The notes below the pieces were generated by a model, which did not search any database, was not told where the DNA came from, and saw only the letters and a program-made list of their open reading frames with translations. Made by a program: the position numbers and the translations under genes. From a virus, in the UHGV virus genome UHGV-1993760: a stretch of 42,235 nucleotides of DNA; one strand, written 5' to 3'. This document shows, one piece after another, positions 38,773-39,785 of this stretch; the first letter of the stretch is position 1; each line of letters starts with the position of its first letter.

Positions 38773-38961
38773 ATGAGACTGTATTTCACAATAGTAATTT
38801 TACTGGCAATTATCGCATGTATTTACGGATTACTTGTTCCGTTCCTTATATCCATGAAGGATACGATAGCAGTTATTTCTGGCTTTGCACTGGCGTTTCT
38901 GACCCCGCCCTGCATTTATGCCATTTACAAGGGTTTTTCTTTCACTAAGGATAAAAGATGA
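38773..38961 (+). CDS. small two-helix membrane protein, coupled to the SPFH gene
   Basis: 62 aa, two hydrophobic segments; stop overlaps the SPFH start (ATGA). Confidence 0.4.
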   Translation: MRLYFTIVILLAIIACIYGLLVPFLISMKDTIAVISGFALAFLTPPCIYAIYKGFSFTKDKR

Positions 38962-39785
38962 AAAAAATTATTTTTGCTTTAGCCATTGTTCTGCCGACTA
39001 TTGGCCTTGTCGGTTGCGATCGCGTTGAACCAGGTAATGTTGGCATCAAGGTAAATAAACTGGGCGACGACAAAGGCGTCGGTGAGGTGGTCGGTGTTGG
39101 TCGCTACTGGACTGGCTGGAATACTGAAGTTTACATCTTCCCCACCTTCAAGCAAATGAAGACCTACGATGAACCGTTCAGTTTCCAGATGAGTGACGGT
39201 ACAACCATCGGCTATCACATTGGCGTGGCCTACAAAGTTGATCCATCCAAAGTTACCACGGTGTTTCAGACCTACCGCAAAGGCGTGGATGACATTACCG
39301 ACACCGACCTGCGTCAGAAGATCGCCGACGCACTTAACCGACTGGCCAGCAAAATGACCACCGACAAATTTATCGACGGCGGCAAGTCTGAGCTGCTGGA
39401 TGCTGCTCTTAAAGACATTCAGGAAGAAATGACGCCCATCGGTATTCAGGTAATGAGCCTCTCATATGTGGGTAAGCCGGAGTATCCGCCAACCGTTCTC
39501 GACAGCATTAATGCCAAAGTCACGGCGAACCAGAAAACACTGCAGCGCGAGCAGGAAGTTAAACAGCGCGAAGCGGAAGCCAACATGTTGCGCGCGGAAG
39601 CTGCCGGACAGGCAGATGCGATTCGCACAAAAGCCCAGGCTGAAGCCGATGCTATTCGTTTACGCGGTGAAGCTCTGCGCCAGAACCCCGGTGTTATGGA
39701 GCTGGAAGCCATCAATAAATGGAACGGCACACTGCCGCAATACATGACCAGCGGCGCCAGTACACCATTTATCCAGGTTAAATAA
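38958..39785 (+). CDS. SPFH/band-7 (prohibitin-like) lipoprotein
   Basis: 275 aa; lipoprotein signal MKKIIFALAIVLPTIGLVGC; SPFH-like core followed by an Ala/Glu/Gln-rich coiled coil. Confidence 0.7.
   Translation: MKKIIFALAIVLPTIGLVGCDRVEPGNVGIKVNKLGDDKGVGEVVGVGRYWTGWNTEVYIFPTFKQMKTYDEPFSFQMSDGTTIGYHIGVAYKVDPSKVTTVFQTYRKGVDDITDTDLRQKIADALNRLASKMTTDKFIDGGKSELLDAALKDIQEEMTPIGIQVMSLSYVGKPEYPPTVLDSINAKVTANQKTLQREQEVKQREAEANMLRAEAAGQADAIRTKAQAEADAIRLRGEALRQNPGVMELEAINKWNGTLPQYMTSGASTPFIQVK

Follow-up and report, generated by a model that had tools for sequence, protein, structure and literature searches.

SPFH superfamily members (HflK/C, prohibitins, stomatins and flotillins) are universal membrane scaffolds, and most of their roles in bacteria are poorly understood. 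HflK and HflC enclose FtsH in a cage, FtsH degrades the λ proteins CII, CIII and Xis, and in solved SPFH cages a long coiled-coil helix forms the cage wall. In Escherichia coli QmcA, the SPFH domain lies on the cytoplasmic side. QmcA-YbbJ (PDB 8z5g), YqiJ-YqiK and the NfeD2-FloA pair of Bacillus subtilis represent a second arrangement, the NfeD-SPFH operon, in which the gene for a membrane protein lies directly 5′ of the SPFH gene and is co-translated with it. Here, we describe two genes of similar layout, encoding a 62-amino-acid (aa) membrane protein and a 275-aa SPFH lipoprotein, in the virus genome UHGV-1993760 (42,235 nucleotides (nt); this whole stretch is hereafter called the window).

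SPFH genes have been listed in T4-like phages (PMC1524935), in Vi01-like phages (PMC3220722) and in Stenotrophomonas phage DLP3 (PMC7326821, an entry matched to DLP5). A link between SPFH proteins and lysogeny was suggested for phage CSP3 (PMC10269572), and, according to a 2026 paper on an N4-like phage, why a phage genome should contain the gene 'remains unclear' (PMC13239085). Full-text literature searches for the phage SPFH pair returned annotations and speculation, and no functional study. Our analysis revealed that the pair is an autonomous, ancient, conserved and mobile two-gene module; what is new here is this SPFH module, sometimes fused, spanning temperate and virulent phages, with gp19-gp20 of phage N4 among its members.

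The gene pair and its predicted products

The window is a phiP27-like E. coli prophage, the pair region being 97 % identical at the nucleotide level to phage phiP27 and 99.8 % identical to E. coli chromosomes. The initial annotation had described two open reading frames (ORFs) on the + strand that share an ATGA, and this proved to be exactly the case (Table 1). Read from the sequence, the ATGA is a 4-base start/stop overlap common to both ORFs, and the AAGGA Shine-Dalgarno sequence lies 6 nt upstream of the ATG of the SPFH gene. The pair likewise overlaps by 4 or 8 nt in P88, Pantoea, Lelliottia, Sutterella and N4.

The phiP27 record annotates the lipoprotein (L05, 98.5 % identical to the window protein and labelled 'lipoprotein' or, historically, 'putative serine protease'), and leaves the small ORF without annotation. 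This small ORF is a genuine gene and more than a chance ORF, because it has a low dN/dS (dN/dS 0.19/1.55 versus the Pantoea copy, similar to the 0.10/1.28 of the SPFH gene), its product matches PHROG 1130 (membrane protein, moron category; E = 2.4e-23) and it is annotated by the Prokaryotic Genome Annotation Pipeline (PGAP) in E. coli 08-00022 (WP_001242070.1); both genes of the pair are already in RefSeq. The 275-aa protein matches PHROG 200 (lipoprotein; E = 2.4e-114) only over positions 81–359 of the 379 in that profile, which is consistent with the existence of fused members of the family.

Table 1. Positions of the gene pair, its sequence features and its neighbours in the window
Feature	Position	Strand	Remarks
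Tandem DicA-like helix-turn-helix genes	36223–36771, 36840–37271	+	Same strand as the pair and int
35-aa hydrophobic ORF (MKSNRELNRVKLILILATVLTLTEIIILFIVLSVG)	38642–38749	+	Within the 176-bp, AT-rich spacer upstream of the pair
Gene for the 62-aa partner	38773–38961	+	ORF; two-membrane-helix hairpin; PHROG 1130
Motif G19-x3-P23-x3-S27	38827–38853	+	Periplasmic end of helix 1; alignment of 13 partners; Pro and Ser invariant family-wide
Translational coupling region	38947–38961	+	Shine-Dalgarno AAGGA (38947–38951) inside the end of the small ORF, then ATGA (38958–38961)
Gene for the 275-aa SPFH/Band-7 lipoprotein precursor	38958–39785	+	Pfam Band_7; PHROG 200 (phiP27 L05, N4 gp20 family)
Lipoprotein signal peptide, residues 1–19, with lipobox Cys20 (39015–39017) and Asp21 at +2 (39018–39020)	38958–39020	+	MKKIIFALAIVLPTIGLVGC followed by DR; LVGC lipobox
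SPFH (Band 7) domain, residues 22–208	39021–39581	+	Pfam envelope; strand/helix pattern of the AlphaFold2 model
Long Glu/Ala-rich coiled-coil helix, residues 178–242 (65 residues)	39489–39683	+	AlphaFold2; aligns with the coiled-coil regions of HflK, HflC and prohibitin-2
C-terminal motif KWNGTLP, residues 254–260	39717–39737	+	W, G and P invariant or nearly so family-wide
GC-rich hairpin (gcccggc-aggtc-gccgggc)	39793–39811	+	Perfect 7-bp stem, 5-nt loop, 8 nt past the SPFH stop; T-run absent on either strand
DUF5406 (PHROG 3409) and DUF4222 (PHROG 285) genes	39826–40471	+	Between the pair and xis

The 275-aa protein scored 107.7 bits against Pfam Band_7 (PF01145; cut-off, 23.6 bits), covering positions 2–176 of the 176 in the profile. 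Searches with NCBIfam and Pfam returned only SPFH-type matches for it (Band_7, HflK/HflC and FloT), together with a sub-threshold match to DUF7945. Its N-terminus reads MKK-IIFALAIVLPTIG-LVGC20, i.e. a basic n-region, a hydrophobic core and a lipobox of the form [LVI][ASTVI][GAS]C; G19 and C20 show almost no variation among 22 homologues, and by lipobox criteria the protein is a predicted Lgt/Lsp-type lipoprotein precursor. An AlphaFold2 model (predicted local distance difference test score (pLDDT) 74.6) displays strands over residues 20–94, helices, a further strand at 163–175 and then the long coiled-coil helix, after which follow a short helix and a disordered, conserved C-terminus. Within this C-terminus, K254, W255, N256, G257, L259 and P260 are invariant in one alignment (A1), and in the distant alignments (A2, A3 and A4) the W and G of the motif are invariant and the P nearly so. 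Foldseek aligned the whole chain (250–300 columns) with prohibitin, HflK/C, erlin, stomatin, flotillin and QmcA protomers (E = 1e-13 to 1e-8), and the cage-forming structures matched include 8rrh (prohibitin) and 7vhq/7wi3 (HflK/C).

By sequence, the lipoprotein is closest to HflC, HflK and prohibitin-2 among curated families and solved structures. The phage lipoprotein is reminiscent of the HflK/HflC-FtsH complexes (PDB 7vhp, 7wi3 and 9cz1) in having an N-terminally anchored, predicted periplasmic SPFH domain, a long coiled coil and a conserved C-terminus, and its fold matches the whole protomer. HflK and HflC, however, have a transmembrane-helix anchor, form a K/C heteropair and have a protease partner, whereas the locus described here offers a lipid, one SPFH gene and a 62-aa hairpin. 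We rejected the possibility that the lipoprotein is an HflK or HflC orthologue: its scores fall far under the equivalog cut-offs (HflK, TIGR01933, 23.1 versus 159.4 bits; HflC, TIGR01932, 24.9 versus 134.4 bits), there is one SPFH gene rather than a tandem K/C arrangement, and unrelated small genes flank it. The sequence places the lipoprotein in the SPFH superfamily but outside the HflK/C orthologues.

The lipobox Cys stands two residues ahead of the first SPFH strand, which is the site where the transmembrane helix of HflC ends, suggesting that a lipid stands in for that helix. It is conceivable, although we judge it unlikely, that the pair is a modulator or decoy of a host membrane protease, with a cage that mimics or displaces HflK/C and alters FtsH (or HtpX or other client) degradation; phage or host developmental proteins would then be stabilized, and temperate phages could shift the lysis-lysogeny decision. 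Such a role would fit the kinship just described, the placement of the lipid anchor at the precise point at which the transmembrane helix of HflK/C joins the first SPFH strand (i.e. the same periplasmic topology), and the caging of FtsH and its degradation of CII, CIII and Xis. The authors of the report on Burkholderia phage CSP3 speculated along similar lines (PMC10269572). However, the similarity to HflK/C is remote, as the bit scores above indicate, a K/C pair is missing, the family is abundant in virulent phages, which take no lysogeny decision, and the conserved partner is a tiny hairpin without any protease-related feature.

The Asp at position +2 suggests that the lipoprotein is retained in the inner membrane. 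Retention there is also suggested because some relatives are helix-anchored (L098, P0186 and P0188 lack the lipobox Cys and have an uncleaved N-terminal helix instead), some are fused to inner-membrane helices, and distant relatives come from Gram-positive-linked sources, namely one phage of a Gram-positive host and one metagenome-assembled genome labelled Eubacteriaceae. The residue at +3 of the window lipoprotein, after Asp21, is Arg.

The 62-aa protein has hydrophobic stretches at approximately residues 3–26 and 32–52, separated by an SMKDT loop and followed by a basic tail (KGFSFTKDKR) at the end. By the positive-inside rule, it is predicted to be an N-in, C-in hairpin, with at most ~5 periplasmic and ~10 cytoplasmic residues outside the membrane. 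The G-x3-P-x3-S motif at the end of helix 1 is common to all aligned partners (n=13). The protein gave no Pfam match at E ≤ 0.1, and Pfam and NCBIfam together returned no family, including no holin/antiholin or superinfection-exclusion family. It also differs from the Rz/Rz1-like spanins, whose inner-membrane subunit has a long periplasmic coiled coil, whereas the small protein of the window would expose a periplasmic loop of 5 residues.

The overall anatomy proposed in the initial annotation, i.e. a two-helix membrane protein together with a lipoprotein comprising an SPFH core and a coiled-coil tail, is borne out by the Band_7 score, the lipobox and the AlphaFold2 model. Its comparison with NfeD-SPFH pairs holds for the operon layout, the gene for a membrane protein lying directly 5′ of, and co-translated with, the SPFH gene; it does not extend to an NfeD domain or OB-fold in the partner, and we rejected the small protein as an NfeD homologue, given that Pfam returned no match at E ≤ 0.1 and that it is too short. 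The likeness is one of layout and not of homology, and the upstream partner of the phage pair is kept across phyla. A further shared trait is presumably the co-assembly of both partners in one microdomain. QmcA matched the phage lipoprotein structurally with E = 4e-8, but its SPFH domain is cytoplasmic, whereas that of the phage protein is predicted to be exported.

Pairing, fusion and distribution among phages

The SPFH gene is directly preceded by the hairpin gene in the 186-like phage P88, in P1-like phages including RCS47, in PhiR41_1 (~108 kb, which we take to be SSU5-like) and in N4, and also in Pantoea, Kluyvera, Lelliottia, Chimaeribacter and a 108-kb Yersinia pestis contig. SPFH relatives with 46–48 % identity in Sutterella, Luteibacter and Dyella are preceded directly by a hairpin gene as well. 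In PVP-SE1, a single small ORF separates the partner (gp115) from the lipoprotein. Among 80 close loci in IMG/VR, the partner was found in all 79 that have upstream DNA. In the diverse environmental IMG/VR loci, reached with a 10-sequence alignment of distant relatives, a partner profile hidden Markov model placed the partner no more than 700 nt upstream in 69 of 76, with two more lying further upstream (71/76 in total); the same model returned 2 hits in 346 control segments elsewhere in the diverse loci, both of which are accounted for by the loci with the farther-upstream partner. When 132 flanking proteins from 66 diverse loci were compared all against all by BLAST, no third neighbour recurred.

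Two apparent absences of the partner were rejected on inspection. In Shigella flexneri CP182556 and E. coli CP178302 (L086 and L087, positions 3027–4001), an insertion of ~770 bp separates both genes. It lies exactly at the coupling junction, the C-terminus of the small protein is altered, and we read the insertion as IS1 on the basis of a minus-strand InsA-like ORF. In phage RCS47, the ORF is intact (L003, ~3730–3966) and merely unannotated; the RCS47 hairpin gene is identical to the Ro157c2YLVW copy. In these P1-like phages, the pair is positioned between a tRNA cluster and the dnaB-like helicase gene (ban), a position presumably occupied in reference P1 by tciABC.

Natural fusions, in which the hairpin is followed by a second hydrophobic segment with a lipobox and by the SPFH domain, account for at least 19 of the 150 best 50 %-identity representatives (~13 %), and a further database search returned more than 20 additional fusion proteins. 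In the alignment of 22 fusions, the hairpin-turn residues Pro and Ser (P24 and S28) and the lipobox Cys are invariant, while G20 and G38 are nearly so. The AlphaFold2 model of one fusion (pLDDT 83.8) displays three membrane helices before the SPFH core, with helix 1 extending up to residue 27 and the loop formed by residues 28–31. These fusions are strong evidence, drawn from sequence, for the two proteins acting together physically, and the invariant Cys suggests that lipidation is retained, possibly with cleavage back to two chains. In fusions P0160, P0164, P0167 and others (alignment A4), the invariant lipobox Cys comes after two membrane helices; one possibility is that the fusions are lipidated and then cut by signal peptidase II into the products that the split genes encode. 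Recognition of the partnership with a hairpin of 60–70 aa, sometimes fused, makes a defined two-component system of what was a vague annotation.

The phage version of SPFH is common. The lipoprotein was detected by tblastn in 386 cultured phage records and occurs in hundreds of environmental viral contigs, and pair-region DNA is present in 571 of 5426 complete E. coli genomes (~10 %), at 419 chromosomal and 241 plasmid places. Temperate carriers comprise phiP27, Stx2 phages, P88, P1-like phages and phi1026b. The other carriers are N4, the rV5-like phage PVP-SE1 and its relatives, Felix O1-like Erwinia and Salmonella phages, LUZ24-like Pseudomonas phages, phiCbK-like Caulobacter phages, crAss-like phages and Lak megaphages, all of which are virulent.

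N4 gp19-gp20 and phiP27 L05 have family and pairing in common with the window. N4 gp20 is 62 % identical to the window lipoprotein over its full length, differing in the Tyr-Asp after its lipobox Cys, and gp19 is a 68-aa hairpin with an LLPSMVS motif that overlaps gp20. In N4 (L181, 2907–4331), the pair stands among early/middle genes, behind gp15 and gp16, which are RNA polymerase II genes, and then gp18; gp18, directly upstream of gp19, is annotated 'superinfection exclusion, similar to P22 gp17'.

Carriage by virulent phages, together with the early or lytic operons of P88 and N4 in which the pair resides, indicates that the module is not specifically a prophage accessory or abortive-infection gene; rather, it is a general phage function among early/middle genes. 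The initial annotation had named abortive infection, beside superinfection exclusion, as a candidate role of the prophage pair, and a prophage-specific abortive-infection role is not supported by these data. In a system of that kind, a depolarizing hairpin effector would be restrained by the SPFH cage and freed on infection by another phage, and pairing a small membrane protein with a regulator does recall some membrane-acting abortive systems, the position downstream of repressor genes is reminiscent of rexAB, and the module is mobile between prophages and phage-plasmids. We nevertheless regard it as highly improbable: neither protein matched any of the 5027 models of PADLOC-DB v2.0 at E ≤ 0.1, strictly virulent carriers and lytic early operons are settings where cell killing hurts the carrier, and a one-chain fusion with a conserved lipobox suits a structural complex over a toxin-antitoxin. 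A known defence system was rejected as far as PADLOC-DB v2.0 is concerned, with 0 families returned for the pair and five neighbouring proteins. Conservation of the pair, a point on which the initial annotation had staked its proposal beforehand, was evident in related and unrelated phages alike. The interpretation as a defence candidate is only partly supported, and superinfection exclusion by the pair is possible.

The module is mosaic. Nucleotide similarity to P88 and P1-like phages (86–91 %) is limited to 39006–39752, i.e. the coding part for the mature SPFH protein, and the nucleotide matches comprise only some P1-like records, reference P1 not being among them. The G+C content is ~0.37 over the small gene, the signal peptide and the spacer and 0.52–0.55 over 39006–39752, and positions 38773–39005 are unrelated as DNA to P88 and the P1-like phages, so that the mosaic junction falls within the lipoprotein gene. 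The window and P88 share 97 % identity in the mature SPFH protein, 65 % in the signal peptide and 25 % in the partner. Either recent exchange of the SPFH part among E. coli phages or faster evolution of the partner would account for this pattern.

The pair could also be a membrane-integrity or lysis-timing factor, which would sustain the inner membrane, respiration or proton-motive force, such that the cell remains energized and is not lysed early, e.g. during the long latent period of N4. The module is kept in large-burst virulent phages and is early/middle in N4, the small partner, with two helices and a basic C-tail, follows the general format of class II holins/antiholins, and two reports tie bacterial SPFH complexes to respiration and stress tolerance (PMC12005517, PMC10434171). 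Against this, the pair lies in the repressor-to-int segment, away from the opposite-strand late genes, similarity to holin/antiholin families was absent in Pfam, and a mobile, dispensable cassette that is missing from many close relatives (e.g. reference P1, as inferred from the nucleotide matches) would be left unexplained. We consider this factor quite unlikely, and a scaffold with an exclusion or protective role is the reading developed below.

A putative periplasmic scaffold and its possible role

Since virulent and temperate phages both carry the module, which resides in early/middle operons and moves as a unit, it would work to the advantage of the phage within the infected or lysogenic cell. 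As a molecular picture, we consider it probable that the pair forms a two-component SPFH membrane scaffold with an HflK/C-like periplasmic cage. The data above establish the domain content, the lipobox, the pairing, the fusions and the distribution; regarding localization, cage formation and contact between both proteins, we infer the following. The 62-aa hairpin would insert in the cytoplasmic membrane with both ends cytoplasmic and its Pro-x3-Ser turn at the periplasmic surface. The second gene would be translated by coupling, and its product exported and lipidated on Cys20. With Asp at +2, the lipoprotein would probably be kept in the inner membrane, placing the SPFH domain on the periplasmic leaflet, where the coiled coil and the conserved C-terminus could close into a cage of the HflK/C or prohibitin type above a patch of membrane containing hairpin subunits. 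Such a cage may isolate or shield inner-membrane sites, such that DNA entry by a second phage, or other envelope insults, would fail.

A role in superinfection exclusion or envelope protection is proposed only tentatively, and we would place it clearly below an even chance; for the molecular picture and this role combined, the chance falls not far short of even. The closest functional parallels are T4 Imm and Sp, T5 Llp, Cor of phi80/HK022 and P22 SieA, small lipoproteins or proteins of the inner membrane whose expression, early or from the prophage, alters the envelope and which share with the pair an early-gene or moron setting. They differ in that Pfam detected no sequence similarity to the pair and in lacking an SPFH domain.

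Several points weigh against the scaffold or its proposed role. The neighbourhood of genes annotated for superinfection exclusion is an anecdotal association, resting on gp18 of N4 and on the Vi01-like phage PhiSH19, where an SPFH-domain gene adjoins a gene annotated as a superinfection exclusion protein (PMC3220722). Neither protein appears to resemble known exclusion proteins, and PADLOC gave no match for either. A few nanometre-scale cages would cover little membrane, making a cell-wide block to DNA entry hard to explain. The model of the window protein is of a single chain and only moderate in its pLDDT. LUZ24-like Pseudomonas phages carry the lipoprotein without the typical partner. The +2 residue varies: N4 has Tyr, PVP-SE1 and some of the Klebsiella copies have Glu, and many other members have Ser or Thr. 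Some members may consequently be located in the outer membrane.

A further point of this kind comes from Pasteurella multocida, whose prophage encodes an HflK/C-like SPFH protein of 25–35 kDa, PM0222 (Pmorf0222; OAZ06802.1), which is found in outer-membrane vesicles, stimulates Toll-like receptor (TLR) 1/2 and on deletion attenuates virulence (PMC9872710). It is a putative relative of the phage family. The same protein raises the possibility of a lysogenic-conversion virulence lipoprotein acting on the animal host, e.g. as a TLR2 agonist released in vesicles. The window being phiP27-like, and the closest phage records after phiP27 being Stx2-converting phages, would suit such a function; phiP27 itself is an Stx2e phage. 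We think this very improbable, however, in that the family is widespread in environmental phages and in virulent phages of non-pathogens, any lipoprotein stimulates TLR2, the Pasteurella protein is only a putative relative, and the conserved hairpin partner would be left unexplained.

Extending the scaffold with an exclusion or protective role to the family as a whole, one may picture a hitherto unrecognized, very widespread phage class of periplasmic SPFH cages with a dedicated hairpin subunit, serving as an inner-membrane barrier or trap that blocks the entry of competitor genomes or captures an inner-membrane machine of the host, such as FtsH or a membrane-sensing defence system. We regard this extension as doubtful and on balance unlikely. 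If it were true, SPFH scaffolds would gain a direct part in phage-phage or phage-host conflict, and N4 gp19-gp20 would be given a function. Should the pair be an exclusion or a protease-hijacking device, it would represent a new mechanism of phage competition and a minimal model of how SPFH cages recruit membrane partners.

Neighbouring genes and sequence signals

On the + strand, the order is two DicA-like helix-turn-helix genes, several genes without assigned function, the pair, DUF5406, DUF4222, excisionase and integrase. The initial annotation had located the pair in a cI-to-int accessory region, and the gene order agrees, the pair lying between the DicA-like repressor-type genes and xis/int, on the same strand as both; the late genes of the window are on the opposite strand.

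The 35-aa ORF upstream of the pair has no clear Shine-Dalgarno sequence and is absent from the PGAP annotation. It occurs in phiP27-like loci only (49 of 80 close viral loci) and does not accompany the pair elsewhere, and it was rejected as a conserved third gene of the module because of this confinement.

Consensus scans for the pair, compared with shuffled sequence, revealed no excess of promoters (8 sites versus 10.9 expected) and none, in our judgement, of terminators (6 sites versus 4.8 expected). The GC-rich hairpin past the SPFH stop was not called by the terminator scan; it possibly represents the end of the cassette.

Further downstream, the DUF4222 ORF, when read as 121 aa (40106–40471), overlaps the end of the DUF5406 gene, and the start assigned by PGAP yields a shorter product. 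In E. coli 08-00022, the end of the prophage adjoins a DUF72 gene and yecN.

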